Origin: Nemertoderma westbladi
Taxonomy: Eukaryota > Animalia > Xenacoelomorpha
Length of the DNA stretch: 64,000 nt
Direction: 5' to 3'
Assembly: GCA_032718475.1 (NCBI GenBank)
Contig: JAUCBJ010008594.1
Span: 77,249-141,248, forward strand
Positions 5,016 through 64,000 of this stretch are shown here, in pieces (position 1 is the first letter of the stretch; each line of letters opens with the position of its first letter). Below the pieces are notes generated by a model that saw only the letters and a list, made by a program, of their open reading frames with translations, was not told the DNA's origin and did not search any database. The position numbers were made by a program, and so were the translations under genes.

Positions 5016-5065
5016 ATAACAGTTATTTCTTTCTTTATTGCAACGAAGGCAATAAAGGCAAAAGT

Positions 5066-19060: not shown

Positions 19061-19129
19061 GTATTTTTATATTTTAGAAACTGTGATTTTTTATATTTTA
19101 TAGAATTAAATCCCATTTTCTGGGAGCGG

Positions 19130-36548: not shown

Positions 36549-36675
36549 AGAGTTGATTTTATGCAAACAATGCTGAATTCCTATGATAAGATTCAACCAG
36601 GTCACTCGGCTCTCAATAAGGTAGGGATGTCTCTGGATGAGGTATTCGCCCAAGGTCTACTATTCTTTATTGCAG
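36549..36675 (+). CDS. CYP exon 7
   Basis: TAG acceptor; RVDFMQTML...MSLDEVFAQGLLFFIAG; donor GTGGGT. Confidence 0.9.
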
Positions 36676-38278: not shown

Positions 38279-38391
38279 GTTATGAAACGACATCGAACAC
38301 TTTAAGTTGGTGCTGCTACAATTTGGCTCTGAACCCTGATATTCAAGCTGCAGTCATAAATGAATTGGACGAACTAATTGACAATGATGTT
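38279..38391 (+). CDS. CYP exon 8
   Basis: AAG acceptor; GYETTSNTLSWCCYNLALNPDIQ...; donor GTAAGT. Confidence 0.92.
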
Positions 38392-38889: not shown

Positions 38890-39113
38890 GAATTGACTTA
38901 CGAAAAGGTGTCTAAACTAGAATATCTCGATCGCGTTATATCTGAGACTCTCCGATTGTGTTCGCCTATTGTGCGATTTGAGAGAGTTTGCTCCGAGGAT
39001 TGCGTGGTTAACGGCGTGACGATACCCTAAGATACCGTTGTAGCGGGTTCCCTCTACGTATTACATAGAGATCCGGAAATCTGGCCTAATCCGGAGGAGT
39101 TTAATCCAGATAG
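38890..39113 (+). CDS. CYP exon 9 (in-frame TAA at 39028)
   Basis: ELTYEKVSKLEYLDRVISETLRL...GVTIP*DTVV...HRDPEIWPNPEEFNPDR; donor GTGGGT, phase 2. Confidence 0.9.
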
Positions 39114-39296: not shown

Positions 39297-39843
39297 CACC
39301 AGCATACCATCCTTTGAGCTTGTGCTCATCCGGTCAGAGACTTGCTGAGGACTTTCAAAGTTTACTGTCAAAATTTTGGTCTTTCTGGAGTTAATAAAGA
39401 GACCAACACTAGAAGCAGCATGTTCTAATGAGCCGAGGAGCCGTTCGGCTCCCTCTAGTGATTCTGAGAGCAAGTCATCAGCAAAGTCTAGATCAGTTGG
39501 TACTTGGCAGGATTTCCTCGACTTCTGGAGCCAGTAGGTGGAGTTATCATCATCCCATCATCATTATGATGATCTAAGGACATGCGTAGAACATAGTCAA
39601 CCACAATAATGAACAAGAATGGTGCAAGTGTGTCTCCTTGGAGGACGCCCCATAACACTTCAAATGGTTCTGTGTCACCGTCAACAGTAGACACAAATGT
39701 TGTCGAACCATCGTATACTGATCTGATTGATGCAATAATTTCATCAGGGATCCCATATAATGAAGATATGCTGAACATACGTGAGCGGGAGACTGAATCA
39801 AAGGCTTTGAAGAAGTCAACAAAGATAACAGCCAGATGCCTGT
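39297..39843 (-). mobile_element. Internal RTE LINE RT fragment in intron 9
   Basis: Matches 24465-24995 (GVLQGDTLAPFLF, FADD). Confidence 0.88.
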
Positions 39844-40420
39844 CCCCCCTCTGTCACAATCGATCACGAATTTTGTAACCCCCCCCCCCCCCCCCCCCCC
39901 CCCTTGAATGTCACGCCACAAAAAATACCCATTATAGTTAATAAAAAATGTTAAATGTTAAATTATTATGTTATTAACACTAAATGTTAATACTTCATTA
40001 ATTCAGCTGTACACAATGACTAAACAAGGAAGACACCACGCATAGACACTCCCATGGGAATGACGACATCTGAGTTTCGACATCGATCACCGGAAGTGCA
40101 CCAGGTATACGATCGCCTATTGTTCCATTTCCTGGGTCTAACTCTACCTCGTCCTTATCTACCCAACCCATTCAATGTGGTGTTCTTCATCTTTATCGCC
40201 ACTTAGAATTAACACTTCATCCCCTCGATTCGCGATTACTTGAATAGATTTCACTTTGGCTGTTGATGTTGGTGTTATGTATTTTATTTATTCACCAAAG
40301 TGCTTTTGTGACGTCACAAGTATAGCTACTCACCCCCTTCCCCCATGTCACAAATTGTCACAACATTGCAACCCCCCCCCCCCCCCTTCGACCGTGACAT
40401 CATTTATACACGAGCCCTTA
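39844..40420. mobile_element. Probable MITE/DNA transposon remnant
   Basis: Repeated TGTCAC/GTGACG motifs with poly-C tracts; right end reads AGGGCTCGTGTATAAATGATGTCACGG on the minus strand, next to TTA; left end appears truncated. Confidence 0.45.
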
Positions 40421-40428: not shown

Positions 40429-43400
40429 GCTTTGTTTGGTTAATTTTTCGTTTATGCAGGTTTCTCGCTTTGTTTGGTTAATTTTTCGTTTATACAGGTT
40501 TCTCGCTTTGTTTGGTTAATTTTTCATTTATACAGGTTTCTCGCTTTATTTTGTTAATTTTTCGTTTATACAGGTTTCTCGCTTTGTTTGGTTAATTTTT
40601 CGTTTATACAGGTTTCTCGCTTTGCTTGGTTAATTTTTCGTTTATATAGGTTTCTCGCTTTGTTTGGTTAATTTTTCGTTTATACAGGTTTCTCGCTTTG
40701 TTTTGTTAATTTTTCATTTATACAGGTTTCTCGCTTTGTTTGGTTAATTTTTCGTTTATACAGGTTTCTCGCTTTGTTTGGTTAATTTTTCGTTTATACA
40801 GGTTTCTCGCTTTGTTTTGTTAATTTTTCATTTATACAGGTTTCTCGCTTTGTTTGGTTAATTTTTCGTTTATACAGGTTTCTCGCTTTGTTTTGTTAAT
40901 TTTTCGTTTATACAGGTTTCTCGCTTTGTTTGGTAAATTTTTCGTTTATACAGGTTTCTCGCTTTGTTTTGTTAATTTTTCGTTTATACAGGTTTCTCGC
41001 TTTGTTTGGTTAATTTTTCGTTTATACAGGTTTCTCGCTTTGTTTGGTTAATTTTTCATTTATACAGGTTTCTCGCTTTATTTTGTTAATTTTTCGTTTA
41101 TACAGGTTTCTCGCTTTGTTTGGTTAATTTTTCGTTTATACAGGTTTCTCGCTTTGCTTGGTTAATTTTTCGTTTATATAGGTTTCTCGCTTTGTTTGGT
41201 TAATTTTTCGTTTATACAGGTTTCTCGCTTTGTTTTGTTAATTTTTCATTTATACAGGTTTCTCGCTTTGTTTGGTTAATTTTTCGTTTATACAGGTTTC
41301 TCGCTTTGTTTGGTTAATTTTTCGTTTATACAGGTTTCTCGCTTTGTTTTGTTAATTTTTCATTTATACAGGTTTCTCGCTTTGTTTGGTTAATTTTTCG
41401 TTTATACAGGTTTCTCGCTTTATTTGGTTAATTTTTCGTTTATGCAGGATTCTCGCTTTGTTTGGTTAATTTTTCGTTTATACAGGTTTCTCGCTTTGTT
41501 TGGTTAATTTTTCGTTTATACAGGTTTCTCGCTTTGTTTGGTAAATTTTTCGTTTATACAGGTTTCTCGCTTTGTTTTGTTAATTTTTCGTTTATACAGG
41601 TTTCTCGCTTTGTTTGGTTAATTTTGCATTTATACAGGTTTCTCACTTTGTTTGATTAATTTTTCGTTTATACAGGTTTCTCGCTTTGTTTGGTTAATTT
41701 TTCATTTATACAGGTTTCTCGCTTTGTTTGGTTAATTTTTCGTTTATACAGGGTTCTGGCTTTGTTTGGTAAATTTTTCGTTTATGCAGGATTCTCGCTT
41801 TGTTTGGTTAATTTTTCGTTTATACAGGTTTCTCGCTTTGTTTGGTTAATTTTTCATTTATACAGGTTTCTCGCTTTATTTTGTTAATTTTTCGTTTATA
41901 CAGGTTTCTCGCTTTGTTTGGTTAATTTTTCGTTTATACAGGTTTCTCGCTTTGCTTGGTTAATTTTTCGTTTATATAGGTTTCTCGCTTTGTTTGGTTA
42001 ATTTTTCGTTTATACAGGTTTCTCGCTTTGTTTTGTTAATTTTTCATTTATACAGGTTTCTCGCTTTGTTTGGTTAATTTTTCGTTTATACAGGTTTCTC
42101 GCTTTGTTTGGTTAATTTTTCGTTTATACAGGTTTCTCGCTTTGTTTTGTTAATTTTTCATTTATACAGGTTTCTCGCTTTGTTTGGTTAATTTTTCGTT
42201 TATACAGGTTTCTCGCTTTGTTTTGTTAATTTTTCGTTTATACAGGTTTCTCGCTTTGTTTGGTAAATTTTTCGTTTATACAGGTTTCTCGCTTTGTTTT
42301 GTTAATTTTTCGTTTATACAGGTTTCTCGCTTTGTTTGGTTAATTTTTCGTTTATACAGGTTTCTCGCTTTGTTTGGTTAATTTTTCGTTTATACAGGTT
42401 TCTCGCTTTGTTTGGTTAATTTTTCGTTTATACAGGTTTCTCGCTTTGTTTTGTTAATTTTTCGTTTATACAGGTTTCTCGCTTTGTTTGGTAAATTTTT
42501 CGTTTATACAGGTTTCTCGCTTTGTTTTGTTAATTTTTCGTTTATACAGGTTTCTCGCTTTGTTTGGTTAATTTTGCATTTATACAGGTTTCTCACTTTG
42601 TTTGATTAATTTTTCGTTTATACAGGTTTCTCGCTTTGTTTGGTTAATTTTTCATTTATACAGGTTTCTCGCTTTGTTTGGTTAATTTTTCGTTTATGCA
42701 GGATTCTCGCTTTGTTTGGTTAATTTTTCATTTATACAGGTTTCTCGCTTTGTTTGGTTAATTTTTCGTTTATACAGGTTTCTCGCTTTGTTTGGTAAAT
42801 TTTTCGTTTATACAGGTTTCTCGCTTTGTTTTGTTAATTTTTCGTTTATACAGGTTTCTCGCTTTGTTTGGTTAATTTTGCATTTATACAGGTTTCTCAC
42901 TTTGTTTGATTAATTTTTCGTTTATACAGGTTTCTCGCTTTGTTTGGTTAATTTTTCATTTATACAGGTTTCTCGCTTTGTTTGGTTAATTTTTCGTTTA
43001 TACAGGGTTCTGGCTTTGTTTGGGAAATTTTTCGTTTATGCAGGATTCTCGCTTTGTTTGGTTAATTTTTCGTTTATACAGGTTTCTCGCTTTGTTTGGT
43101 TAATTTTTCATTTATACAGGTTTCTCGCTTTATTTTGTTAATTTTTCGTTTATACAGGTTTCTCGCTTTGTTTGGTTAATTTTTCGTTTATACAGGTTTC
43201 TCGCTTTGCTTGGTTAATTTTTCGTTTATATAGGTTTCTCGCTTTGTTTGGTTAATTTTTCGTTTATACAGGTTTCTCGCTTTGTTTTGTTAATTTTTCA
43301 TTTATACAGGTTTCTCGCTTTGTTTGGTTAATTTTTCGTTTATACAGGTTTCTCGCTTTGTTTGGTTAATTTTTCGTTTATACAGGTTTCTCGCTTTGTT

Positions 43401-46400
43401 TTGTTAATTTTTCATTTATACAGGTTTCTCGCTTTGTTTGGTTAATTTTTCGTTTATACAGGTTTCTCGCTTTGTTTTGTTAATTTTTCGTTTATACAGG
43501 TTTCTCGCTTTGTTTGGTAAATTTTTCGTTTATACAGGTTTCTCGCTTTGTTTTGTTAATTTTTCGTTTATACAGGTTTCTCGCTTTGTTTGGTTAATTT
43601 TTCGTTTATACAGGTTTCTCGCTTTGTTTGGTTAATTTTTCGTTTATACAGGTTTCTCGCTTTGTTTGGTTAATTTTTCGTTTATACAGGTTTCTCGCTT
43701 TGTTTTGTTAATTTTTCGTTTATACAGGTTTCTCGCTTTGTTTGGTAAATTTTTCGTTTATACAGGTTTCTCGCTTTGTTTTGTTAATTTTTCGTTTATA
43801 CAGGTTTCTCGCTTTGTTTGGTTAATTTTGCATTTATACAGGTTTCTCACTTTGTTTGATTAATTTTTCGTTTATACAGGTTTCTCGCTTTGTTTGGTTA
43901 ATTTTTCATTTATACAGGTTTCTCGCTTTGTTTGGTTAATTTTTCGTTTATGCAGGATTCTCGCTTTGTTTGGTTAATTTTTCATTTATACAGGTTTCTC
44001 GCTTTGTTTGGTTAATTTTTCGTTTATGCAGGTTTCTCGCTTTGTTTGGTTAATTTTTCGTTTATACAGGTTTCTCGCTTTGTTTGGTTAATTTTTCGTT
44101 TATACAGGTTTCTCGCTTTGTTTGGTTAATTTTTCATTTATACAGGTTTCTCGCTTTATTTTGTTAATTTTTCGTTTATACAGGTTTCTCGCTTTGTTTG
44201 GTTAATTTTTCGTTTATACAGGTTTCTCGCTTTGCTTGGTTAATTTTTCGTTTATATAGGTTTCTCGCTTTGTTTGGTTAATTTTTCGTTTATACAGGTT
44301 TCTCGCTTTGTTTTGTTAATTTTTCATTTATACAGGTTTCTCGCTTTGTTTGGTTAATTTTTCGTTTATACAGGTTTCTCGCTTTGTTTGGTTAATTTTT
44401 CGTTTATACAGGTTTCTCGCTTTGTTTTGTTAATTTTTCATTTATACAGGTTTCTCGCTTTGTTTGGTTAATTTTTCGTTTATACAGGTTTCTCGCTTTA
44501 TTTGGTTAATTTTTCGTTTATGCAGGATTCTCGCTTTGTTTGGTTAATTTTTCGTTTATACAGGTTTCTCGCTTTGTTTGGTTAATTTTTCGTTTATACA
44601 GGTTTCTCGCTTTGTTTGGTAAATTTTTCGTTTATACAGGTTTCTCGCTTTGTTTTGTTAATTTTTCGTTTATACAGGTTTCTCGCTTTGTTTGGTTAAT
44701 TTTGCATTTATACAGGTTTCTCACTTTGTTTGATTAATTTTTCGTTTATACAGGTTTCTCGCTTTGTTTGGTTAATTTTTCATTTATACAGGTTTCTCGC
44801 TTTGTTTGGTTAATTTTTCGTTTATACAGGGTTCTGGCTTTGTTTGGTAAATTTTTCGTTTATGCAGGATTCTCGCTTTGTTTGGTTAATTTTTCGTTTA
44901 TACAGGTTTCTCGCTTTGTTTGGTTAATTTTTCATTTATACAGGTTTCTCGCTTTATTTTGTTAATTTTTCGTTTATACAGGTTTCTCGCTTTGTTTGGT
45001 TAATTTTTCGTTTATACAGGTTTCTCGCTTTGCTTGGTTAATTTTTCGTTTATATAGGTTTCTCGCTTTGTTTGGTTAATTTTTCGTTTATACAGGTTTC
45101 TCGCTTTGTTTTGTTAATTTTTCATTTATACAGGTTTCTCGCTTTGTTTGGTTAATTTTTCGTTTATACAGGTTTCTCGCTTTGTTTGGTTAATTTTTCG
45201 TTTATACAGGTTTCTCGCTTTGTTTTGTTAATTTTTCATTTATACAGGTTTCTCGCTTTGTTTGGTTAATTTTTCGTTTATACAGGTTTCTCGCTTTGTT
45301 TTGTTAATTTTTCGTTTATACAGGTTTCTCGCTTTGTTTGGTAAATTTTTCGTTTATACAGGTTTCTCGCTTTGTTTTGTTAATTTTTCGTTTATACAGG
45401 TTTCTCGCTTTGTTTGGTTAATTTTTCGTTTATACAGGTTTCTCGCTTTGTTTGGTTAATTTTTCGTTTATACAGGTTTCTCGCTTTGTTTGGTTAATTT
45501 TTCGTTTATACAGGTTTCTCGCTTTGTTTTGTTAATTTTTCGTTTATACAGGTTTCTCGCTTTGTTTGGTAAATTTTTCGTTTATACAGGTTTCTCGCTT
45601 TGTTTTGTTAATTTTTCGTTTATACAGGTTTCTCGCTTTGTTTGGTTAATTTTGCATTTATACAGGTTTCTCACTTTGTTTGATTAATTTTTCGTTTATA
45701 CAGGTTTCTCGCTTTGTTTGGTTAATTTTTCATTTATACAGGTTTCTCGCTTTGTTTGGTTAATTTTTCGTTTATGCAGGATTCTCGCTTTGTTTGGTTA
45801 ATTTTTCATTTATACAGGTTTCTCGCTTTGTTTGGTTAATTTTTCGTTTATACAGGTTTCTCGCTTTGTTTGGTAAATTTTTCGTTTATACAGGTTTCTC
45901 GCTTTGTTTTGTTAATTTTTCGTTTATACAGGTTTCTCGCTTTGTTTGGTTAATTTTGCATTTATACAGGTTTCTCACTTTGTTTGATTAATTTTTCGTT
46001 TATACAGGTTTCTCGCTTTGTTTGGTTAATTTTTCATTTATACAGGTTTCTCGCTTTGTTTGGTTAATTTTTCGTTTATACAGGGTTCTGGCTTTGTTTG
46101 GGAAATTTTTCGTTTATGCAGGATTCTCGCTTTGTTTGGTTAATTTTTCGTTTATACAGGTTTCTCGCTTTGTTTGGTTAATTTTTCATTTATACAGGTT
46201 TCTCGCTTTATTTTGTTAATTTTTCGTTTATACAGGTTTCTCGCTTTGTTTGGTTAATTTTTCGTTTATACAGGTTTCTCGCTTTGCTTGGTTAATTTTT
46301 CGTTTATATAGGTTTCTCGCTTTGTTTGGTTAATTTTTCGTTTATACAGGTTTCTCGCTTTGTTTTGTTAATTTTTCATTTATACAGGTTTCTCGCTTTG

Positions 46401-49400
46401 TTTGGTTAATTTTTCGTTTATACAGGTTTCTCGCTTTGTTTGGTTAATTTTTCGTTTATACAGGTTTCTCGCTTTGTTTTGTTAATTTTTCATTTATACA
46501 GGTTTCTCGCTTTGTTTGGTTAATTTTTCGTTTATACAGGTTTCTCGCTTTGTTTTGTTAATTTTTCGTTTATACAGGTTTCTCGCTTTGTTTGGTAAAT
46601 TTTTCGTTTATACAGGTTTCTCGCTTTGTTTTGTTAATTTTTCGTTTATACAGGTTTCTCGCTTTGTTTGGTTAATTTTTCGTTTATACAGGTTTCTCGC
46701 TTTGTTTGGTTAATTTTTCGTTTATACAGGTTTCTCGCTTTGTTTGGTTAATTTTTCGTTTATACAGGTTTCTCGCTTTGTTTTGTTAATTTTTCGTTTA
46801 TACAGGTTTCTCGCTTTGTTTGGTAAATTTTTCGTTTATACAGGTTTCTCGCTTTGTTTTGTTAATTTTTCGTTTATACAGGTTTCTCGCTTTGTTTGGT
46901 TAATTTTGCATTTATACAGGTTTCTCACTTTGTTTGATTAATTTTTCGTTTATACAGGTTTCTCGCTTTGTTTGGTTAATTTTTCATTTATACAGGTTTC
47001 TCGCTTTGTTTGGTTAATTTTTCGTTTATGCAGGATTCTCGCTTTGTTTGGTTAATTTTTCATTTATACAGGTTTCTCGCTTTGTTTGGTTAATTTTTCG
47101 TTTATGCAGGATTCTCGCTTTGTTTGGTTAATTTTTCGTTTATACAGGTTTCTCGCTTTGTTTGGTTAATTTTTCGTTTATACAGGTTTCTCGCTTTGTT
47201 TGGTAAATTTTTCGTTTATACAGGTTTTTCGCTTTGTTTTGTTAATTTTTCGTTTATACAGGTTTCTCGCTTTGTTTGGTTAATTTTGCATTTATACAGG
47301 TTTCTCACTTTGTTTGATTAATTTTTCGTTTATACAGGTTTCTCGCTTTGTTTGGTTAATTTTTCATTTATACAGGTTTCTCGCTTTGTTTGGTTAATTT
47401 TTCGTTTATACAGGGTTCTGGCTTTGTTTGGTAAATTTTTCGTTTATGCAGGATTCTCGCTTTGTTTGGTTAATTTTTCGTTTATACAGGTTTCTCGCTT
47501 TGTTTGGTTAATTTTTCGTTTATACAGGTTTCTCGCTTTGTTTGGTTAATTTTTCGTTTATGCAGGATTCTCGCTTTGTTTGGTTAATTTTTCATTTATA
47601 CAGGTTTCTCGCTTTGTTTGGTTAATTTTTCGTTTATACAGGGTTCTGGCTTTGTTTGGTTAATTTTTCGTTTATGCAGGATTCTCGCTTTGTTTGGTTA
47701 ATTTTTCGTTTATACAGGGTTCTCGCTTTGTTTGGTTAATTTTTCATTTATACAGGTTTCTCGCTTTGTTTGGTTAATTTTACGTTTATACAGGGTTCTG
47801 GCTTTGTTTGGTTAATTTTTCGTTTATGCAGGATTCTGGCTTTGTTTGGTTAATTTTTCGTTTATGCAGGATTCTCGCTTTGTTTGGTTAATTTTTCATT
47901 TATACAGGTTTCTCGCTTTGTTTGGTTAATTTTTCGTTTATACAGGTTTCTCGCTTTATTTCGTTAATTTTTCGTTTATACAGGTTTCTCGCTTTGTTTG
48001 GTTAATTTTGCATTTATACAGGTTTCTCACTTTGTTTGATTAATTTTTCGTTTATACAGGTTTCTCGCTTTGTTTGGTTAATTTTTCATTTATACAGGTT
48101 TCTCGCTTTGTTTGGTTAATTTTTCGTTTATACAGGGTTCTGGCTTTGTTTGGTAAATTTTTCGTTTATGCAGGATTCTCGCTTTGTTTGGTTAATTTTT
48201 CGTTTATACAGGTTTCTCGCTTTGTTTGGTTAATTTTTCATTTATACAGGTTTCTCGCTTTATTTTGTTAATTTTTCGTTTATACAGGTTTCTCGCTTTG
48301 TTTGGTTAATTTTTCGTTTATACAGGTTTCTCGCTTTGCTTGGTTAATTTTTCGTTTATATAGGTTTCTCGCTTTGTTTGGTTAATTTTTCGTTTATACA
48401 GGTTTCTCGCTTTGTTTTGTTAATTTTTCATTTATACAGGTTTCTCGCTTTGTTTGGTTAATTTTTCGTTTATACAGGTTTCTCGCTTTGTTTGGTTAAT
48501 TTTTCGTTTATACAGGTTTCTCGCTTTGTTTTGTTAATTTTTCATTTATACAGGTTTCTCGCTTTGTTTGGTTAATTTTTCGTTTATACAGGTTTCTCGC
48601 TTTGTTTTGTTAATTTTTCGTTTATACAGGTTTCTCGCTTTGTTTGGTAAATTTTTCGTTTATACAGGTTTCTCGCTTTGTTTTGTTAATTTTTCGTTTA
48701 TACAGGTTTCTCGCTTTGTTTGGTTAATTTTTCGTTTATACAGGTTTCTCGCTTTGTTTGGTTAATTTTTCGTTTATACAGGTTTCTCGCTTTGTTTGGT
48801 TAATTTTTCGTTTATACAGGTTTCTCGCTTTGTTTTGTTAATTTTTCGTTTATACAGGTTTCTCGCTTTGTTTGGTAAATTTTTCGTTTATACAGGTTTC
48901 TCGCTTTGTTTTGTTAATTTTTCGTTTATACAGGTTTCTCGCTTTGTTTGGTTAATTTTGCATTTATACAGGTTTCTCACTTTGTTTGATTAATTTTTCG
49001 TTTATACAGGTTTCTCGCTTTGTTTGGTTAATTTTTCATTTATACAGGTTTCTCGCTTTGTTTGGTTAATTTTTCGTTTATGCAGGATTCTCGCTTTGTT
49101 TGGTTAATTTTTCATTTATACAGGTTTCTCGCTTTGTTTGGTTAATTTTTCGTTTATACAGGTTTCTCGCTTTGTTTGGTAAATTTTTCGTTTATACAGG
49201 TTTCTCGCTTTGTTTTGTTAATTTTTCGTTTATACAGGTTTCTCGCTTTGTTTGGTTAATTTTGCATTTATACAGGTTTCTCACTTTGTTTGATTAATTT
49301 TTCGTTTATACAGGTTTCTCGCTTTGTTTGGTTAATTTTTCATTTATACAGGTTTCTCGCTTTGTTTGGTTAATTTTTCGTTTATACAGGGTTCTGGCTT

Positions 49401-52400
49401 TGTTTGGGAAATTTTTCGTTTATGCAGGATTCTCGCTTTGTTTGGTTAATTTTTCGTTTATACAGGTTTCTCGCTTTGTTTGGTTAATTTTTCATTTATA
49501 CAGGTTTCTCGCTTTATTTTGTTAATTTTTCGTTTATACAGGTTTCTCGCTTTGTTTGGTTAATTTTTCGTTTATACAGGTTTCTCGCTTTGCTTGGTTA
49601 ATTTTTCGTTTATATAGGTTTCTCGCTTTGTTTGGTTAATTTTTCGTTTATACAGGTTTCTCGCTTTGTTTTGTTAATTTTTCATTTATACAGGTTTCTC
49701 GCTTTGTTTGGTTAATTTTTCGTTTATACAGGTTTCTCGCTTTGTTTGGTTAATTTTTCGTTTATACAGGTTTCTCGCTTTGTTTTGTTAATTTTTCATT
49801 TATACAGGTTTCTCGCTTTGTTTGGTTAATTTTTCGTTTATACAGGTTTCTCGCTTTGTTTTGTTAATTTTTCGTTTATACAGGTTTCTCGCTTTGTTTG
49901 GTAAATTTTTCGTTTATACAGGTTTCTCGCTTTGTTTTGTTAATTTTTCGTTTATACAGGTTTCTCGCTTTGTTTGGTTAATTTTTCGTTTATACAGGTT
50001 TCTCGCTTTGTTTGGTTAATTTTTCGTTTATACAGGTTTCTCGCTTTGTTTGGTTAATTTTTCGTTTATACAGGTTTCTCGCTTTGTTTTGTTAATTTTT
50101 CGTTTATACAGGTTTCTCGCTTTGTTTGGTAAATTTTTCGTTTATACAGGTTTCTCGCTTTGTTTTGTTAATTTTTCGTTTATACAGGTTTCTCGCTTTG
50201 TTTGGTTAATTTTGCATTTATACAGGTTTCTCACTTTGTTTGATTAATTTTTCGTTTATACAGGTTTCTCGCTTTGTTTGGTTAATTTTTCATTTATACA
50301 GGTTTCTCGCTTTGTTTGGTTAATTTTTCGTTTATGCAGGATTCTCGCTTTGTTTGGTTAATTTTTCATTTATACAGGTTTCTCGCTTTGTTTGGTTAAT
50401 TTTTCGTTTATGCAGGATTCTCGCTTTGTTTGGTTAATTTTTCGTTTATACAGGTTTCTCGCTTTGTTTGGTTAATTTTTCGTTTATACAGGTTTCTCGC
50501 TTTGTTTGGTAAATTTTTCGTTTATACAGGTTTTTCGCTTTGTTTTGTTAATTTTTCGTTTATACAGGTTTCTCGCTTTGTTTGGTTAATTTTGCATTTA
50601 TACAGGTTTCTCACTTTGTTTGATTAATTTTTCGTTTATACAGGTTTCTCGCTTTGTTTGGTTAATTTTTCATTTATACAGGTTTCTCGCTTTGTTTGGT
50701 TAATTTTTCGTTTATACAGGGTTCTGGCTTTGTTTGGTAAATTTTTCGTTTATGCAGGATTCTCGCTTTGTTTGGTTAATTTTTCGTTTATACAGGTTTC
50801 TCGCTTTGTTTGGTTAATTTTTCGTTTATACAGGTTTCTCGCTTTGTTTGGTTAATTTTTCGTTTATGCAGGATTCTCGCTTTGTTTGGTTAATTTTTCA
50901 TTTATACAGGTTTCTCGCTTTGTTTGGTTAATTTTTCGTTTATACAGGGTTCTGGCTTTGTTTGGTTAATTTTTCGTTTATGCAGGATTCTCGCTTTGTT
51001 TGGTTAATTTTTCGTTTATACAGGGTTCTCGCTTTGTTTGGTTAATTTTTCATTTATACAGGTTTCTCGCTTTGTTTGGTTAATTTTACGTTTATACAGG
51101 GTTCTGGCTTTGTTTGGTTAATTTTTCGTTTATGCAGGATTCTGGCTTTGTTTGGTTAATTTTTCGTTTATGCAGGATTCTCGCTTTGTTTGGTTAATTT
51201 TTCATTTATACAGGTTTCTCGCTTTGTTTGGTTAATTTTTCGTTTATACAGGTTTCTCGCTTTATTTCGTTAATTTTTCGTTTATACAGGGTTCTGGCTT
51301 TGTTTGGTTAATTTTTCGTTTATATAGGTTTCTCGCTTTGTTTGGTTAATTTTTCGTTTATATAGGTTTCTCGCTTTGCTTGGTTAATTTTTCGTTTATA
51401 TAGGTTTCTCGCTTTGTTTGGTTAATTTTTCGTTTATACAGGTTTCTCGCTTTGTTTTGTTAATTTTTCATTTATACAGGTTTCTCGCTTTGTTTGGTTA
51501 ATTTTTCGTTTATACAGGTTTCTCGCTTTGTTTGGTTAATTTTTCGTTTATACAGGTTTCTCGCTTTGTTTGGTTAATTTTTCGTTTATACAGGTTTCTC
51601 GCTTTGTTTTGTTAATTTTTCGTTTATACAGGTTTCTCGCTTTGTTTGGTAAATTTTTCGTTTATACAGGTTTCTCGCTTTGTTTTGTTAATTTTTCGTT
51701 TATACAGGTTTCTCGCTTTGTTTGGTTAATTTTGCATTTATACAGGTTTCTCACTTTTTTGATTAATTTTTCGTTTATACAGGTTTCTCGCTTTGTTTGG
51801 TTAATTTTTCATTTATACAGGTTTCTCGCTTTGTTTGGTAAATTTTTCGTTTATGCAGGATTCTCGCTTTGTTTGGTTAATTTTTCATTTATACAGGTTT
51901 CTCGCTTTGTTTGGTTAATTTTTCGTTTATGCAGGATTCTCGCTTTGTTTGGTTAATTTTTCGTTTATACAGGTTTCTCGCTTTGTTTGGTTAATTTTTC
52001 GTTTATACAGGTTTCTCGCTTTGTTTGGTAAATTTTTCGTTTATACAGGTTTCTCGCTTTGTTTTGTTAATTTTTCGTTTATACAGGTTTCTCGCTTTGT
52101 TTGGTTAATTTTGCATTTATACAGGTTTCTCGCTTTGTTTTGTTAATTTTTCGTTTATACAGGTTTCTCGCTTTGTTTGGTTAATTTTTCGTTTATACAG
52201 GTTTCTCGCTTTGTTTGGTTAATTTTTCGTTTATACAGGTTTCTCGCTTTGTTTGGTTAATTTTTCGTTTATACAGGTTTCTCGCTTTGTTTTGTTAATT
52301 TTTCGTTTATACAGGTTTCTCGCTTTGTTTGGTAAATTTTTCGTTTATACAGGTTTCTCGCTTTGTTTTGTTAATTTTTCGTTTATACAGGTTTCTCGCT

Positions 52401-55400
52401 TTGTTTGGTTAATTTTGCATTTATACAGGTTTCTCACTTTGTTTGATTAATTTTTCGTTTATACAGGTTTCTCGCTTTGTTTGGTTAATTTTTCATTTAT
52501 ACAGGTTTCTCGCTTTGTTTGGTTAATTTTTCGTTTATGCAGGATTCTCGCTTTGTTTGGTTAATTTTTCATTTATACAGGTTTCTCGCTTTGTTTGGTT
52601 AATTTTTCGTTTATGCAGGATTCTCGCTTTGTTTGGTTAATTTTTCGTTTATACAGGTTTCTCGCTTTGTTTGGTTAATTTTTCGTTTATACAGGTTTCT
52701 CGCTTTGTTTGGTAAATTTTTCGTTTATACAGGTTTTTCGCTTTGTTTTGTTAATTTTTCGTTTATACAGGTTTCTCGCTTTGTTTGGTTAATTTTGCAT
52801 TTATACAGGTTTCTCACTTTGTTTGATTAATTTTTCGTTTATACAGGTTTCTCGCTTTGTTTGGTTAATTTTTCATTTATACAGGTTTCTCGCTTTGTTT
52901 GGTTAATTTTTCGTTTATACAGGGTTCTGGCTTTGTTTGGTAAATTTTTCGTTTATGCAGGATTCTCGCTTTGTTTGGTTAATTTTTCGTTTATACAGGT
53001 TTCTCGCTTTGTTTGGTTAATTTTTCGTTTATACAGGTTTCTCGCTTTGTTTGGTTAATTTTTCGTTTATGCAGGATTCTCGCTTTGTTTGGTTAATTTT
53101 TCATTTATACAGGTTTCTCGCTTTGTTTGGTTAATTTTTCGTTTATACAGGGTTCTGGCTTTGTTTGGTTAATTTTTCGTTTATGCAGGATTCTCGCTTT
53201 GTTTGGTTAATTTTTCGTTTATACAGGGTTCTCGCTTTGTTTGGTTAATTTTTCATTTATACAGGTTTCTCGCTTTGTTTGGTTAATTTTACGTTTATAC
53301 AGGGTTCTGGCTTTGTTTGGTTAATTTTTCGTTTATGCAGGATTCTGGCTTTGTTTGGTTAATTTTTCGTTTATGCAGGATTCTCGCTTTGTTTGGTTAA
53401 TTTTTCATTTATACAGGTTTCTCGCTTTGTTTGGTTAATTTTTCGTTTATACAGGGTTCTCGCTTTATTTCGTTAATTTTTCGTTTATACAGGGTTCTGG
53501 CTTTGTTTGGTTAATTTTTCGTTTATATAGGTTTCTCGCTTTGTTTGGTTAATTTTTCGTTTATATAGGTTTCTCGCTTTGCTTGGTTAATTTTTCGTTT
53601 ATATAGGTTTCTCGCTTTGTTTGGTTAATTTTTCGTTTATACAGGTTTCTCGCTTTGTTTTGTTAATTTTTCATTTATACAGGTTTCTCGCTTTGTTTGG
53701 TTAATTTTTCGTTTATACAGGTTTCTCGCTTTGTTTGGTTAATTTTTCGTTTATACAGGTTTCTCGCTTTGTTTGGTTAATTTTTCGTTTATACAGGTTT
53801 CTCGCTTTGTTTTGTTAATTTTTCGTTTATACAGGTTTCTCGCTTTGTTTGGTAAATTTTTCGTTTATACAGGTTTCTCGCTTTGTTTTGTTAATTTTTC
53901 GTTTATACAGGTTTCTCGCTTTGTTTGGTTAATTTTGCATTTATACAGGTTTCTCACTTTTTTGATTAATTTTTCGTTTATACAGGTTTCTCGCTTTGTT
54001 TGGTTAATTTTTCATTTATACAGGTTTCTCGCTTTGTTTGGTAAATTTTTCGTTTATGCAGGATTCTCGCTTTGTTTGGTTAATTTTTCATTTATACAGG
54101 TTTCTCGCTTTGTTTGGTTAATTTTTCGTTTATGCAGGATTCTCGCTTTGTTTGGTTAATTTTTCGTTTATACAGGTTTCTCGCTTTGTTTGGTTAATTT
54201 TTCGTTTATACAGGTTTCTCGCTTTGTTTGGTAAATTTTTCGTTTATACAGGTTTCTCGCTTTGTTTTGTTAATTTTTCGTTTATACAGGTTTCTCGCTT
54301 TGTTTGGTTAATTTTGCATTTATACAGGTTTCTCACTTTGTTTGATTAATTTTTCGTTTATACAGGTTTCTCGCTTTGTTTGGTTAATTTTTCATTTATA
54401 CAGGTTTCTCGCTTTGTTTGGTTAATTTTTCGTTTATACAGGGTTCTGGCTTTGTTTGGTAAATTTTTCGTTTATGCAGGATTCTCGCTTTGTTTGGTTA
54501 ATTTTTCGTTTATACAGGTTTCTCGCTTTGTTTGGTTAATTTTTCGTTTATACAGGTTTCTCGCTTTGTTTGGTTAATTTTTCGTTTATGCAGGATTCTC
54601 GCTTTGTTTGGTTAATTTTTCATTTATACAGGTTTCTCGCTTTGTTTGGTTAATTTTTCGTTTATACAGGGTTCTGGCTTTGTTTGGTTAATTTTTCGTT
54701 TATGCAGGATTCTCGCTTTGTTTGGTTAATTTTTCGTTTATACAGGGTTCTCGCTTTGTTTGGTTAATTTTTCATTTATACAGGTTTCTAGCTTTGTTTG
54801 GTTAATTTTACGTTTATACAGGGTTCTGGCTTTGTTTGGTTAATTTTTCGTTTATGCAGGATTCTGGCTTTGTTTGGTTAATTTTTCGTTTATGCAGGAT
54901 TCTCGCTTTGTTTGGTTAATTTTTCATTTATACAGGTTTCTCGCTTTGTTTGGTTAATTTTTCGTTTATACAGGGTTCTGGCTTTGTTTGGTTAATTTTT
55001 CGTTTATGTAGGATTCTCGCTTTGTTTGGTTAATTTTTCATTTATACAGGTTTCTCGCTTTGTTTGGTTAATTTTACGTTTATACAGGGTTCTGGCTTTG
55101 TTTGGTTAATTTTTCGTTTATGCAGGATTCTCGCTTTGTTTGGTTAATTTTTCGTTTATGCAGGATTCTCGCTTTGTTTGGTTAATTTTTCGTTTATGCA
55201 GGATTCTCGCTTTTGTTTGGTTAATTTTTCGTTTATACAGGTTTCTCGCTTTGTTTGGTTAATTTTTCGTTTATACAGATTTCTCGCTTTGTTTGGTTAA
55301 TTTTTCGTTTATACAGATTTCTCGCTTTGTTTGGTTAATTTTGCATTTATACAGGTTTCTCGCTTTGTTTGGTTAATTTTTCGTTTATACAGGGTTCTGG

Positions 55401-58400
55401 CTTTGTTAGGTTAATTTTTCGTTTATGCAGGATTCTCGCTTTGTTTGGTTAATTTTTCGTTTATACAGGGTTCTCGCTTTGTTTGGTTAATTTTTCATTT
55501 ATACAGGTTTCTCGCTTTGTTTGGTTAATTTTACGTTTATACAGGTTTCTGGCTTTGTTTGGTTAATTTTTCGTTTATGCAGGATTCTGGCTTTGTTTGG
55601 TTAATTTTTCGTTTATGCAGGATTCTCGCTTTGTTTGGTTAATTTTTCGTTTATATAGGGTTCTGGCTTTGTTTGGTTAATTTTTCGTTTATACAGGGTT
55701 CTGGCTTTGTTTGGTTAATTTTTCGTTTATGCAGGATTCTCGCTTTGTTTGGTTAATTTTTCATTTATACAGGTTTCTCGCTTTGTTTGGTTAATTTTTC
55801 GTTTATACAGGGTTCTGACTTTGTTTGGTTAATTTTTCGTTTATGCAGGTTTCTCGCTTTGTTTGGTTAATTTTTCGTTTATACAGGGTTCTCGCTTTGT
55901 TTGGTAAATTTTTCATTTATACAGGATTCTCGCTTTGTTTGGTTAATTTTTCGTTTATACAGGTTTCTCGCTTTGTTTGGTTAATTTTTCGTTTATACAG
56001 GATTCTCGCTTTGTTTGGTTAATTTTTCGTTTATGCAGGATTCTCGCTTTGTTTGGTTAATTTTTCGTTTATATAGGGTTCTGGCTTTGTTTGGTTAATT
56101 TTTCCTTTAAGCAGGGTTCTCGCTTTGTTTGGGTAATTTTTCGTTTATACAGGTTTCTCGCTTTGTTTGGTTAATTTTTCGTTTATGCAGGATTCTCGCT
56201 TTGTTTGGTTAATTTTTCGTTTATACAGGTTTCTCGCTTTGTTTGGTTAATTTTTCATTTAGACAGGTTTCTCGCTTTGTTTGGTTAATTTTTCGTTTAT
56301 GCAGGATTCTCGCTTTGTTTGGTTAATTTTTCGTATATGCAGGATTCTCGCTTTGTTTGGTTAATTTTTCGTTTATACAGGTTTCTCGCTTTGGTTGGTT
56401 AATTTTTCGTTTATACAGGTTTCTCGCTTTGTTTGGTTAATTTTTCGTTTATGCAGGATTCTCGCTTTGTTTGGTTAATTTTTCATTTATACAGGTTTCT
56501 CGCTTTGTTTGGTTAATTTTTCGTTTATACAGGGTTCTGGCTTTGTTTGGTTAATTTTTCGTTTATGCAGGATTCTCGCTTTGTTTGGTTAATTTTACGT
56601 TTATGCAGGATTCTCGCTTTGTTTGGTTAATTTTTCGTTTATACAGGTTTCTCGCTTTGTTTGGTTAATTTTTCGTTTATACAGGTTTCTCGCTTTGTTT
56701 GGTTAATTTTTCGTTTATGCAGGATTCTCGCTTTGTTTGGTTAATTTTTCATTTATACAGGTTTCTCGCTTTGTTTGGTTAATTTTTCGTTTATACAGGG
56801 TTCTGGCTTTGTTTGGTTAATTTTTCGTTTATGCAGGATTCTCGCTTTGTTTGGTTAATTTTTCGTTTATACAGGATTCTTGCTTTGTTTGGTTAATTTT
56901 TCGTTTATACAGGATTCTCGCTTTGTTTGGTTAATTTTTCGTTTATACAGGTTTCTCGCTTTGTTTGGTTAATTTTTCATTTATACAGGTTTATCGCTTT
57001 GTTTGGTTAATTTTTCGTTTATGCAGGATTCGCGCTTTGTTTGGTTAATTTTTCATTTATACAGGTTTCTCGCTTTGTTTGGTTAATTTTTCGTTTATGC
57101 AGGATTCTCGCTTTGTTTGGTTAATTTTTCGTTTATACAGGATTCTCGCTTTGTTTGGTGAATTTTTCGTTTATACAGGATTCTCGCTTTGTTTGGTTAA
57201 TTTTTCGTTTATACAGGTTTCTCGCTTTGTTTGGTTAATTTTTCATTTATACAGGTTTCTCGCTTTGTTTGGTTAATTTTTCGTTTATACAGGTTTCTCG
57301 CTTTGTTTGGTTAATTTTTCATTTATACAGGTTTCTCGCTTTGTTTGGTTAATTTTTCGTTTATACAGGGTTCTCGCTTTGTTTGGTTAATTTTGCATTT
57401 ATACAGGTTTCTCGCTTTGTTTGGTTAATTTTTCGTTTATACAGAGTTCTGGCTTTGTTTGGTTAATTTTTCGTTTATGCAGGATTCTCGCTTTGTTTGG
57501 TTAATTTTTCGTTTATACAGGGTTCTCGCTTTGTTTGGTTAATTTTTCATTTATACAGGTTTCTCGCTTTGTTTGGTTAATTTTTCGTTTATACAGGTTT
57601 CTCGCTTTGTTTGGTTAATTTTTCATTTATACAGGTTTCTCGCTTTGTTTGGTTAATTGTTCGTTTATGCAGGGTTCTGGCTTTGTTTGGTTAATTTTTC
57701 GTTTATGCAGGATTCTCGCTTTGTTTGGTTAATTTTTCGTTTATACAGGATTCTCGCTTTGTTTTGATAATTTTTCGTTTATACAGGTTTCTCGCTTTGT
57801 TTGGTTAATTTTTCATTTATACAGGTTTCTCGCTTTGTTTGGTTAATTTTTCGTTTATACAGGGTTCTCGCTTTGTTTGGTTAATTTTGCATTTATACAG
57901 GTTTCTCGCTTTGTTTGGTTAATTTTTCGTTTATACAGGATTCTCGCATTGTTTGGTTAATTTTTCGTTTATACAGGTTTCTCGCTTTGTTTGGTTAATT
58001 TTTCATTTATACAGGTTTCTCGCTTTGTTTGGTTAATTTTTCGTTTATACAGGGTTCTCGCTTTGTTTGGTTAATTTTGCATTTATACAGGTTTCTCGCT
58101 TTGTTTGGTTAATTTTTCGTTTATACAGGATTCTCGCATTGTTTGGTTAATTTTTCGTTTATACAGGTTTCTCGCTTTGTTTGGTTAATTTTTCATTTAT
58201 ACAGGTTTCTCGCTTTGTTTGGTTAATTTTTCGTTTATACAGGGTTCTGGCTTTGTTTGTCTAATTTTTCGTTTATACAGGATTCTCGCTTTGTTTGGTT
58301 AATTTTTCGTTTATACAGGATTCTCGCTTTGTTTGGTTAATTTTTCGTTTATACGGGTTTCTCGCTTTGTTTGGTTAATTTTTCCTTCATACAGGTTTCT

Positions 58401-61398
58401 CGCTTTGTTTGGTTAATTTTTCATTTATACAGGTTTCTCGCTTTGTTTGGTTAATTTTTCGTTTATACAGGATTCTCGCTTTGTTTTGATAATTTTTCGT
58501 TTATACAGGTTTCTCGCTTTGTTTGGTTAATTTTTCATTTATACAGGTTTCTCGCTATGTTTGGTTAATTTTTCGTTTATACAGGATTCTCGCATTGTTT
58601 GGTTAATTTTTCGTTTATACAGGTTTCTCGCTTTGTTTGGTTAATTTTTCATTTATACAGGATTCTCGCTGTGTTTGGTTAATTTTTCGTTTATACAGGA
58701 TTCTCGCTTTGTTTGGTTAATTTTTCGTTTATACAGGATTCTCGCTTTGTTTGGTTAATTTTTCGTTTATACAGGATTCTCGCTTTGTTTGGTTAATTTT
58801 TCGTTTATACGGGTTTCTCGCTTTGTTTGGTTAATTTTTCCTTCATACAGGTTTCTCGCTTTGTTTGGTTAATTTTTCATTTATACAGGTTTCTCGCTTT
58901 GTTTTGATAATTTTTCGTTTATACAGGTTTCTCGCTTTGTTTGGTTAATTTTTCATTTATACAGGATTCTCGCTTTGTTTGGTTAATTTTTCGTTTATAC
59001 AGGTTTCTCGCTTTGTTTGGTTAATTTTTCATTTATACAGGTTTCTCGCTTTGTTTGGTTAATTTTTCGTTTATACAGGATTCTCGCTTTGTTTGGTTAA
59101 TTTTTCGTTTATACGGGTTTCTCGCTTTGTTTGGTTAATTTTTCCTTCATACAGGTTTCTCGCTTTGTTTGGTTAATTTTTCATTTATACAGGTTTCTCG
59201 CTTTGTTTGGTTAATTTTTCGTTTATACAGGGTTCTGGCTTTGTTTGTCTAATTTTTCGTTTATACAGGCACAGGGTTCTGGCTTTGTTTGTCTAATTTT
59301 TCGTTTATACAGGATTCTCGCTTTGTTTGGTTAATTTTTCGTTTATACAGGATTCTCGCTTTGTTTGGTTAATTTTTCGTTTATACGGGTTTCTCGCTTT
59401 GTTTGGTTAATTTTTCCTTCATACAGGTTTCTCGCTTTGTTTGGTTAATTTTTCATTTATACAGGTTTCTCGCTTTGTTTGGTTAATTTTTCGTTTATAC
59501 AGGATTCTCGCTTTGTTTTGATAATTTTTCGTTTATACAGGTTTCTCGCTTTGTTTGGTTAATTTTTCATTTATACAGGTTTCTCGCTATGTTTGGTTAA
59601 TTTTTCGTTTATACAGGATTCTCGCATTGTTTGGTTAATTTTTCGTTTATACAGGTTTCTCGCTTTGTTTGGTTAATTTTTCATTTATACAGGATTCTCG
59701 CTGTGTTTGGTTAATTTTTCGTTTATACAGGATTCTCGTTTTGTTTGGTTAATTTTTCGTTTATACAGGATTCTCGCTTTGTTTGGTTAATTTTTCGTTT
59801 ATACAGGATTCTCGCTTTGTTTGGTTAATTTTTCGTTTATACGGGTTTCTCGCTTTGTTTGGTTAATTTTTCCTTCATACAGGTTTCTCGCTTTGTTTGG
59901 TTAATTTTTCATTTATACAGGTTTCTCGCTTTGTTTTGATAATTTTTCGTTTATACAGGTTTCTCGCTTTGTTTGGTTAATTTTTCATTTATACAGGATT
60001 CTCGCTTTGTTTGGTTAATTTTTCGTTTATACAGGTTTCTCGCTTTGTTTGGTTAATTTTTCATTTATACAGGTTTCTCGCTTTGTTTGGTTAATTTTTC
60101 GTTTATACAGGGTTCTGGCTTTGTTTGTCTAATTTTTCGTTTATGCAGGATTCTCGCTTTGTTTGGTTAATTTTTCGTTTATACAGGATTCTCGCTTTGT
60201 TTGGTTAATTTTTCGTTTATACAGGATTCTCGCTTTGTTTGGTTAATTTTTCGTTTATATAGGTTTCTCGCTTTGTTTGGTTAATTTTTCATTTATACAG
60301 GTTTCTCGCTTTGTTTGGTTAATTTTTCATTTATACAGGTTTCTCGCTTTGCTTGGTTAATTTTTCGTTTATACAGGTTTCTCGCTTTGTTTGGTTAATT
60401 TTTCGTTTATACAGGTTTCTCGCTTTATTTCGTTAATTTTTCGTTTATACAGGGTTCTGGCTTTGTTTGTCTAATTTTTCGTTTATGCAGGATTCTCGCT
60501 TTGTTTGGTTAATTTTTCGTTTATGCAGGATTCTCGCTTTGTTTGGTTAATTTTTCGTTTATACAGGTTTCTCGCTTTATTTCGTTAATTTTTCGTTTAT
60601 ACAGGGTTCTGGCTTTGTTTGTCTAATTTTTCGTTTATGCAGGATTCTCGCTTTGTTTGGTTAATTTTTCGTTTATACAGGATTCTCGCTTTGTTTGGTT
60701 AATTTTTCGTTTATACAGGATTCTCGCTTTGTTTGGTTAATTTTTCGTTTATATAGGTTTCTCGCTTTGTTTGGTTAATTTTTCATTTATACAGGTTTCT
60801 CGCTTTGTTTGGTTAATTTTTCATTTATACAGGTTTCTCGCTTTGTTTGGTTAATTTTTCGTTTATACAGGTTTCTCGCTTTGTTTGGTTAATTTTTCGT
60901 TTATACAGGTTTCTCGCTTTGTTTGGTTAATTTTTCGTTTATACAGGATTCTCGCTTTGTTTGGTTAATTTTTCGTTTATACAGGTTTCTCGCTTTATTT
61001 CGTTAATTTTTCGTTTATACAGGATTCTCGCTTTGTTTGGTTAATTTTTCGTTTATACAGGTTTCTCGCTTTATTTCGTTTATACAGGTTTCTCGCTTTG
61101 TTTGGTTAATTTTTCGTTTATACAGGATTCTCGCTTTGTTTGGTTAATTTTTCGTTTATACAGGTTTCTCGCTTTATTTCGTTAATTTTTCGTTTATACA
61201 GGTTTCTCGCTTTGTTTGGTTAATTTTTCGTTTATACAGGATTCTCGCTTTGTTTGGTTAATTTTTCGTTTATATAGGTTTCTCGCTTTGTTTGGTTAAT
61301 TTTTCATTTATACAGGTTTCTCGCTTTATTTCGTTAATTTTTCGTTTATACAGGTTTCTCGCTTTATTTCGTTAATTTTTCGTTTATACAGGTTTCTC
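40429..61398 (+). repeat. 38-bp intronic satellite, about 550 copies, derived from the exon 10 splice acceptor
   Basis: Unit GCTTTGTTTGGTTAATTTTTCGTTTATACAG|GTTTCTC; the last unit runs directly into exon 10. Confidence 0.98.
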
Positions 61399-61538
61399 CC
61401 CGAACAAAAGAAGAATCGCAACCCCTATGCTTACGCTCCTTTTGGTCTCGGGCCCAGAAGTTGCCTAGCAACCAGATTTGCATTGCTGGAAGTAAAGGTG
61501 GCTCTCGTGAGACTCCTTCAAAACTATAACATTCAGAG
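61392..61538 (+). CDS. CYP exon 10 (heme-binding cysteine)
   Basis: RFLPEQKKNRNPYAYAPFGLGPRSCLATRFALLEVKVALVRLLQNYNIQR; phase matches exon 9; donor GTAAGA. Confidence 0.95.
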
Positions 61539-64000
61539 GTAAGATGAGCTCTATAGTTAAACTCTATGTTAATAACATTCAGAGGTAAGATGAGCTCTGG
61601 TTAAACTCTATGTTAATAACATTCAGAGGTACGATGAGCTCTTGTTAAACTCTATGTTAATAACATTCAGAGGTAAGATGAGCTCTAGTTAAACTCTATG
61701 TTAATAACATTCAGAGGTAAGATGAGCTCTAGTTAAACTCTATGTTAATAACATTCAGAGGTACGATGAGCTCTTGTTAAACTCTATGTTAATAACATTC
61801 AGAGGTAAGATGAGCTCTAGTTAAACTCCATGTTAATAACATCCAGAGGTACGATGAGCTCTAGTTAAACTCTATGTTAATAACATTCAGAGGTACGATG
61901 AGCTCTTGTTAAACTCTATGTTAATAACATTCAGAGGTAAGATGAGCTCTAGTTAAACTCTATGTTAATAACATTCAGAGGTAAGATGAGCTCTAGTTAA
62001 ACTCTATGTTAATAACATTCAGAGGTAAGATGAGCTCTAGTTAAACTCTATGTTAATAACATTCAGAGGTAAGATGAGCTCTAGTTAAACTCTATGTTAA
62101 TAACATTCAGAGGTAAGATGAGCTCTAGTTAAACTCTATGTTAATAACATTCAGAGGTAAGATGAGCTCTAGTTAAACTCTATGTTAATAACATTCGGAG
62201 GTAAGATGAGCTCTAGTTAAACTTTATGTTAATAACATTCAGACGTAAGATGAGCTCTAGTTAAACTCTATGTTAATAACATTCAGAGGTAAGATGAGCT
62301 CTAGTTAAACTCTATGTTAATAACATTCAGAGGTAAGATGAGCTCTAGTTAAACTCTATGTTACTAACATTCAGAGGTAAGATGAGCTCTAGTTAAACTT
62401 TATGTTAATAACCTTCAGACGTAAGATGAGCTCTAGTTAAACTCTATGTTAATAACATTCAGACGTAAGATGAGCTCTAGTTAAACTCTATGTTAATAAC
62501 ATTCAGAGGTAAGATGAGCTCTAGTTAAACTCTATGTTAATAACATTCAGAGGTAAGATGAGCTCTAGTTAAACTCTATGTTACTAACATTCAGAGGTAA
62601 GATGAGCTCTAGTTAAACTTTATGTTAATAACCTTCAGACGTAAGATGAGCTCTAGTTAAACTCTATGTTAATAACATTCAGAGGTAAGATGAGCTCTAG
62701 TTAAACTCTATGTTAATAACATTCAGAGGTAAGATGAGCTCTAGTTAAACTTTATGTTAATAACATTCAGAGGTAAGATGAGCTCTAGTTAAACTCTATG
62801 TTAATAACATTCAGAGGTAAGATGAGCTCTAGTTAAACTCCATGTTAATAACATTCATAGGTAAGATGAGCTCTAGTTAAACTCCATACTGATAACATTC
62901 AGAGGTAAGATGAGCTCTAGTTAAACTCCATGTTAATAACATTCATAGGTAAGATGAGCTCTAGTTCAACTCCATACTGATAACATTCAGAGGTAAGATG
63001 AGCTCTAGTTAAACTCCATGTTAATAACATTCAGAGGTAAGATGAGCTCTAGTTAAACTCCATACTGAGAACATTCAGAGGTAAGATGAGCTCTAGTTAA
63101 ACTCCATACTGATAACATCCCGAGGTAAGATGAGCTCTAGTTAAACTCCATACTGATAACATCCAGAGGTAAGATGAGCTCTAGTTCAACTCCATTTTAA
63201 TAACATCCAGAGGTAAGATGAGCTCTAGTTAAACTCCATACTGATAACATTCAGAGGTAAGATGAGCTCTAGTTAAACTCCATGTTAATAACATTCATAG
63301 GTAAGATGTGCTCTAGTTAAACTCCATACTGATAACATTCAGAGGTAAGATGAGCTCTAGTTAAACTCCATGTTAATAACATCCAGAGGTAAGATGAGCT
63401 CTAGTTAAACTCCATACTGATAACATTCAGAGGTAAGATGAGCTCTAGTTAAACTCCATGTTAATAACATTCATAGGTAAGATGTGCTCTAGTTAAACTC
63501 CATACTGATAACATTCAGAGGTAAGATGAGCTCTAGTTAAACTCCATGTTAATAACATTCATAGGTAAGATGTGCTCTAGTTAAACTCCATACTGATAAC
63601 ATTCAGAGGTAAGATGAGCTCTAGTTAAACTCCATGTTAATAACATTCAGAGGTAAGATGAGCTCTAGTTAAACTCCATACTGAGAACATTCAGAGGTAA
63701 GATGTGCTCTAGTTAAACTCCATACTGATAACATCCCGAGGTAAGATGAGCTCTAGTTAAACTCCATACTGATAACATCCAGAGGTAAGATGAGCTCTAG
63801 TTCAACTCCATTTTAATAACATCCAGAGGTAAGATGAGCTCTAGTTAAACTCCATACTGATAACATTCAGAGGTAAGATGAGCTCTAGTTAAACTCCATG
63901 TTAATAACATTCATAGGTAAGATGTGCTCTAGTTAAACTCCATACTGATAACATTCAGAGGTAAGATGAGCTCTAGTTAAACTCCATGTTAATAACATTC
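61526..64000 (+). repeat. 44-bp intronic satellite, at least 56 copies (runs off the window), derived from the exon 10 splice donor
   Basis: Unit ATAACATTCAGAG|GTAAGATGAGCTCTAGTTAAACTCTATGTTA; the first unit overlaps the exon end. Confidence 0.98.

Follow-up and report, generated by a model that had tools for sequence, protein, structure and literature searches.

Tandem copies of both splice junctions of one exon in a predicted cytochrome P450 gene of Nemertoderma westbladi

The P450 gene and its junction-spanning arrays

We analyzed a window of 64,000 nucleotides (nt) from the xenacoelomorph Nemertoderma westbladi (GenBank assembly GCA_032718475.1, contig JAUCBJ010008594.1, positions 77,249 to 141,248 of the forward strand); all positions given here count from the first letter of this window. 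It contains a predicted cytochrome P450 gene, modeled as ten exons from 28060 to 61538 in a single frame with GT-AG introns (Table 1), and exon 10 of this gene, which encodes the heme-binding cysteine, is bordered on each side by a long tandem array whose unit crosses the splice junction. All four exon pieces that were searched match the Pfam p450 family, three of them above the curated cut-off, and the ExxR, PERF-like and heme Cys motifs of the domain are present. The best PDB matches of these pieces are CYP3A5, CYP3A7 and CYP3A4, at E values of about 1e-17. Judged by sequence, the host gene would be a CYP3A-like cytochrome P450, the clan being assigned by best match only.

The single lesion among 471 P450 codons is an in-frame TAA in exon 9. 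Contigs of one sequencing run, X1, terminate at 39027 and resume at 39029, a break at 39028 that suggests a variable site, perhaps a segregating null allele. Word-index protein searches with single P450 exons returned no match, hence no independent protein for the residue at this stop, and the relatives found with HMMER all have 64% identity or less.

Intron 9 is 22,278 nt long and consists mostly of copies of its own 3' end. Tandem Repeats Finder reported a period of 38 and 552.0 copies, and a unit-by-unit decomposition likewise gave 552 units, 547 of them 38 bp long and five of other lengths, in 60 distinct types. Each unit comprises the final 31 nt of intron 9 and the initial 7 nt of exon 10, with the real 3' splice site in the last one. 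A first-pass annotation of this DNA had described about 550 tandem acceptor copies, each with an acceptor signal, the first 7 exon bases and a following stop, and had named exon 9 as the upstream exon, in agreement with the ten-exon model; this description of the array was accurate, and it omitted the donor array, the exon 9 stop and the known repeat class treated below. The AG had been said to persist in nearly all variants with an occasional change of CAG to TAG, and we find it in 547 of the 552 units (546 upstream copies and the real one) and lost in five, and among the 547 units of 38 bp, 21 read TAG and 71 carry TGCAG. When exon 9 is spliced in silico to an upstream copy, 248 of the 546 joins read R-F-L-A-L-F-G-stop, as had been predicted for the consensus. 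A stop is reached within 8 residues in 501 joins and within 108 in the remaining 45, and the copies do resemble acceptors, use of which would truncate the protein in all 546 cases.

The 3' side of exon 10 has its own array, in which the unit is made of the final 13 nt of exon 10 and the initial 31 nt of intron 10. GT is present in all 56 donor units in view, and the donor 9-mer equals that of the real donor in 42 of them. Neither AATAAA nor ATTAAA occurs in the acceptor or the donor array, and premature polyadenylation is therefore unsupported. A smaller, 30-bp repeat lies over the exon 4 donor (self-match score 20 at lag 30); the other splice sites outside the arrays score 6-15, the exception being the window at the exon 4 acceptor, into which this 30-bp repeat extends. 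The duplication is a third, incipient junction-spanning repeat of the P450 gene, which places such repeats at 3 of its 19 splice sites in view.

The copies in the acceptor array are closely alike, with a mean of 1.27 differences per 38-bp unit and a mean divergence of 3.4%. Exact block repeats include an 86-unit run at lag 87 and a 79-unit run at lag 81, blocks of 3.0-3.3 kb, and the unit types show gradients that depend on position along the array. The two exact runs point to recent block duplication as the probable source of this uniformity. Masking of the copies by RNA structure was tried as an explanation and set aside; three stretches were folded without shuffle controls, and the acceptor units came out nearly unstructured.

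Seven sequencing runs are available, none of them on record as RNA, and contigs from among them were placed on 61200-61800. Runs X1 and X2 behave like DNA and yield many array contigs (both of the two DNA-like samples examined). Contigs of X2 cover 61337-61407 and 61378-61553 with zero differences, so that a second sample confirms the assembly at this place, and one unbroken X2 contig, at depth 91, crosses the last two acceptor copies. The exact kilobase repeats, together with an acceptor array that is spanned by no read or contig, could also mean that the arrays are real but much shorter than assembled. The 60 unit types with their positional gradients argue against this, as does a depth in X1 and X2 of order 10^4 on the array versus at most 66 on exon 10 (an order of magnitude only), and we regard such inflation as very improbable. 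In X1 and X2, summed contig depth is two- to three-fold higher on the donor array than on the acceptor array, and the donor array may be the larger one; two similar unique flanks exit the donor array in X2, neither of them within 61200-61800. Summed depth was rejected as a measure of copy number, because two runs of one sample, X2 and X3, differ by a factor of about 8 to 22 where the array begins.

Splicing of exon 10 and variation among the copies

Evidence on splice site use comes from a further run, X4, in which all three contigs on 61200-61800 cover exon sequence only. Contig 17 (depth 330) joins the end of exon 9 to 61392; the 30 letters ahead of 61390, compared by eye, are identical to the exon 9 end at 39082-39111, and the match continues without difference to 61421. 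Because it extends past the repeated 7 nt, the acceptor used in contig 17 is the last one. Contig 18 (depth 225) exits exon 10 at the first donor and enters new in-frame sequence, C-E-K-T, which stands at the corresponding place in 3 of 18 homologues picked from 150 HMMER matches. The exon 9-10-11 joins are correct in the X4 contigs, which come from a single run whose sample may differ in array length. From this behavior we infer that X4, a run labeled 'DNA?' by guess, is RNA. Neither array received a contig from X4, nor did any part of 61200-61800 from X6, absences that carry no evidential weight.

The first-pass annotation had contrasted exon definition from the downstream donor with a first-AG model of acceptor choice. 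The latter is a poor alternative, as 67 AG dinucleotides already precede the acceptor array in intron 9. Exon definition fares better, in that the last acceptor is used in the contig, but the downstream donor is itself repeated at least 56 times, and exon definition therefore needs a nearest-pair rule or exon enhancers. Splice-site sequence alone cannot make the choice, because 9 of the 547 units share the 31 intron nt of the real acceptor unit and the majority of the donor copies are identical to the real donor. The unit directly preceding the real acceptor is identical to it across these 31 nt, and the real unit departs from the array consensus at two positions, both in the branch-point zone.

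If the copies served a purpose, their splice signals might be expected to vary less than the rest of the unit, as had been proposed for AG and TTAAT. We aligned the acceptor units, counted derived alleles per position and repeated the count on spanning-tree changes; 13 of the 38 positions are invariant. The counts lend the proposal no support: AG has one derived allele versus 2.1 expected (P=0.34; spanning tree P=0.24; best reachable P=0.11), and TTAAT has five versus 5.3 (P=0.55 by either count), its second T being altered in 40 units. AG and the donor GT taken jointly give P=0.18. The group nearest to significance is the U-tract, with 7 alleles versus 11.6 expected (P=0.057, one of eight groups tested). 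Excess conservation of AG, TTAAT, GT or the stop-forming T was thus not detected in the arrays, in a test of low power. When mock 38-bp units were built from the other eight acceptors of the gene, each of the 24 site-by-phase cases reached a stop, 10 within 8 codons; since the unit length of 38 cannot be divided by three and the mock units always stop, the stop after each copy needs no special explanation.

These results bear on the decoy function that the first-pass annotation had implied, in which the copies would bind U2AF or U2, or send transcripts to decay, and array length would tune the P450 dose. The number of AG-bearing copies, every one leading to a stop, the involvement of both ends of the heme-binding exon and the slightly lower than expected variation of the U-tract fit such a role. 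The lack of excess conservation, the chance expectation of stops and a contig join that uses the real site do not, and we consider the role improbable; the analysis gave no evidence for a regulatory decoy. A related speculation, to which we give a slim chance, is a length-variable sponge, in which several hundred acceptor copies and the large donor array would bind splicing factors or divert part of the transcripts to decay as a heritable dial of P450 dose, the amplified unit perhaps having been filtered for a weakened branch point that let it expand without inactivating the gene.

Recursive splicing sites have an acceptor directly before a near-consensus donor and produce saw-tooth nascent RNA and internal junction reads. 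Intron 9 resembles a ratcheted intron in its length and in 388 acceptor units with AG directly before GT (370 CAG|GT and 18 TAG|GT), and joining exon 9 to such a copy regenerates AG|GT. The intron might then leave stepwise, with any use of a copy corrected by re-splicing. Unlike ratchet points, however, these are copies of the terminal acceptor and not dedicated elements, and the donor they regenerate is far from consensus, mismatched from +3 to +5; a G at +5 is present in all ten real P450 donors and in no AG|GT or G|GTAAAT site of the acceptor array. The regenerated sequence is also that of the real exon 9-10 join, which is stable in X4. Stepwise removal by this route has, in our judgment, hardly any likelihood.

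We favor, as the probable explanation, a giant junction-spanning ('mirage') minisatellite that grew recently and is largely neutral, with splicing surviving through cross-exon recognition and use of the innermost pair of sites. The two arrays, the make-up of their units, the kilobase exact block repeats and the innermost exon 9-10-11 joins in one contig set are observed. Growth by recent neutral block duplication, through unequal exchange or slippage, would account for the arrays, and exon 10 would be recognized across its body, with the innermost acceptor paired to the innermost donor. The first strong donor after the start of the acceptor array is the one at 61539. Because no +5 G donor stands at the AG|GT or G|GTAAAT sites of the array, upstream copies would have no cross-exon partner; with just 7 exon nt and no real-looking donor behind, an upstream copy would be without exon enhancers and without a U1 partner across the exon. 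Four copies near the donor, with which the exon would measure 185-299 nt, would be outcompeted by the nearest, 147-nt pair. Occasional use of a copy would produce an early stop and likely decay, masking the cost.

Several observations weigh against this explanation. Strength of the branch site may matter: a strict branch motif accompanied by another candidate A occurs in 18 units, the real one among them, and 393 of 542 units carry the loose motif only, and weaker upstream copies may therefore contribute to choice of the real site. Long flanking introns are described, in the excerpted parts of PMC9225289, as reducing the preference for upstream 3' sites, without a shown reversal. The conservation test is low-powered, and even an invariant AG would give only P=0.11. 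X4 comes from a different sample than X1 and X2, one in which the array may be of another length; its joins could come from a processed copy in DNA, and contigs lose rare variants, so low-level decoy use would escape detection. X4 contig 19 (depth 120) shows an unexplained second join, of 114 letters onto the exon 10 start at 61392. These letters lack a terminal AG and bear no resemblance to exon 9, and for an 18-nt piece of them the window contains no match even with 3 mismatches allowed; they are possibly an alternative upstream exon of another allele or paralogue. Finally, the assembled allele carries the exon 9 stop.

This last point raises the alternative that the assembled haplotype is null and that its arrays grew under relaxed selection, working alleles having short arrays. 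The TAA replaces a conserved Lys, the kilobase block duplications are recent and the transcript contigs belong to another sample, all of which favor a dead allele. However, the stop is just one lesion in 471 codons, the interruption of the X1 contigs coincides with it, as it would at a variable position, and contigs of both arrays are abundant in X2 as well, together with the depth-91 contig, with the reservation that summed depth is not copy number. We think this alternative unlikely.

The 147-nt exon has 546 near-identical acceptors upstream of it and no fewer than 55 donors downstream, some 30,000 possible wrong pairings, and the observed join is the innermost. With RNA and DNA of a single animal, the locus would serve as an extreme natural stress test of the rigor with which identical competitors are excluded through cross-exon definition and proximity. 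It also illustrates that tandem expansion can create giant introns and break gene prediction. An influence of array length on the output of the P450, if there were one, would amount to a new type of expression polymorphism; no such effect is shown here.

Other elements in the window

Beyond the P450 gene, the window holds remnants of mobile elements. One LINE-type family has left several fragments, with remnants of reverse transcriptase, upstream of the P450 gene (23617-25968), in intron 2 (29587-30054) and in the unique part of intron 9 (Table 1). A Pao/BEL-type long terminal repeat retrotransposon with several frame breaks occupies 8795-15794 (DUF1759, Peptidase_A17, Integrase_H2C2 and DUF5641), and a piece of its 3' part is found again near 23152-23577, in minus orientation. 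The minus strand of 1087-3759 holds open reading frames (ORFs) of 325, 265 and 176 residues, partly repeated near 18522-19549; the 325- and 265-residue ORFs have no Pfam match, and a 41-bp repeat with its following sequence recurs at 3853 and 19174. This pair of regions suggests an unclassified mobile element. Two related ORF fragments, at 4989-5621 and 25790-26521, have no Pfam match and, going by resemblance, probably represent the C-terminal end of another retroelement family. A 33-bp minisatellite (26703-27190, 14.8 copies, 97% matches) lies upstream of the P450 gene, some 870 bp from its start codon, and not at one of its splice sites.

Table 1. Features of the predicted P450 gene, its arrays and the element in intron 9
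Feature	Position	Strand	Remarks
Exons 1-4	28060-28124, 28834-28980, 32425-32521, 32858-32974	+	CYP3A-like P450 (predicted)
Exons 5-8	35098-35335, 35572-35711, 36549-36675, 38279-38391	+	exon 5: Pfam p450 E=6e-4, below curated cut-off
Exon 9 (224 nt)	38890-39113	+	upstream partner of exon 10
In-frame TAA in exon 9	39028-39030	+	upstream of heme Cys; Lys of the CYP3A I-P-K-G motif replaced
Exon 10 (147 nt), heme-binding Cys motif	61392-61538	+	Pfam p450 E=3.6e-14
Acceptor array	40429-61398	+	552 units x 38 bp; real 3' splice site in last unit, 61361-61398
Donor array	61526-64000	+	at least 56 units x 44 bp, continuing past the window end; first unit 46 bp
Two-copy 30-bp duplication over exon 4 donor	32960-33015	+	self-match as given in the text
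Exon 10 splice use, last acceptor to first donor			X4 contigs 17 and 18, X2 contig 13
LINE-type high-copy fragment	39300-39853	-	unique part of intron 9; RVT_1 E=4.7e-07; very high depth in X1-X3

Comparison with known junction-spanning repeats

Repeats of this kind have precedents. A mirage in the Adh3 gene of amphioxus was reportedly described by Canestro et al. in 2002, as passages citing that work have it. In the excerpts considered here from two other papers, junction-spanning tandem repeats of amphioxus are named mirages and splicing is reported to be undisturbed (PMC3087553, PMC3902484), the examples being the globins BflGb6 and BflGb9 (Ebner et al. 2010, PMC3087553) and troponin C and PGBD5 (PMC3902484). 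As these excerpts present them, the mirages share with the P450 arrays a tandem unit that crosses an intron-exon boundary and copies the splice signal, a reported length range (10-160 bp) that includes the P450 units of 38 and 44 bp, the possibility that 5' as well as 3' boundaries are affected, and a terminal unit that departs from the homogenized interior; normal splicing would be shared as well, judging by the X4 joins. The same excerpts give three to six units for BflGb6, versus 552 copies over 21 kb in the P450 acceptor array, and P450 exon 10 differs further in being amplified at both of its ends. Overall, we found four of six mirage features in the P450 arrays: a head-to-tail minisatellite unit, a unit spanning the boundary (the boundaries being confirmed by the X4 joins), AG or GT kept in most copies, and concerted evolution from which the boundary unit is partly excluded. 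The remaining two are normal mRNA free of aberrant products of the copies, for which the X4 contigs show correct joins, and variation in length among haplotypes or cells, where the summed depth of contigs varied several-fold between two runs of a single sample.

A direct match for the donor array is the 37-bp variable number tandem repeat in intron 7 of human F7, where, according to the part of the report considered, only the first of 5-9 identical donors is used (Borensztajn et al. 2006, PMC1557585). In both genes, donor copies trail the real donor. As excerpted, the F7 case has 5-9 donor copies on the donor side only and was tested by mutagenesis, whereas the P450 case has at least 56 donor units, involves both sides and was read from sequence. 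An exon-centric proximity rule, by which long flanking introns favor those sites that lie closest across the exon (Carranza et al. 2022, PMC9225289, in excerpt), predicts use of the last acceptor and the first donor, as in the P450 contigs. From what the excerpt describes, that rule rests on competing human site pairs and minigenes, not on hundreds of copies, and its 3' effect is weaker. Earthworm metallothionein arrays are intronic, and none is described as junction-spanning in the excerpted text (PMC12783039).

The published junction-spanning examples that we found have 3-9 copies, a survey that does not disprove a larger array in print, and the exclusion of competing sites has previously been studied with 2-9 copies. 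The P450 arrays of N. westbladi belong to an already named class of repeat, in which their scale and their symmetry on both sides of one exon are extreme.

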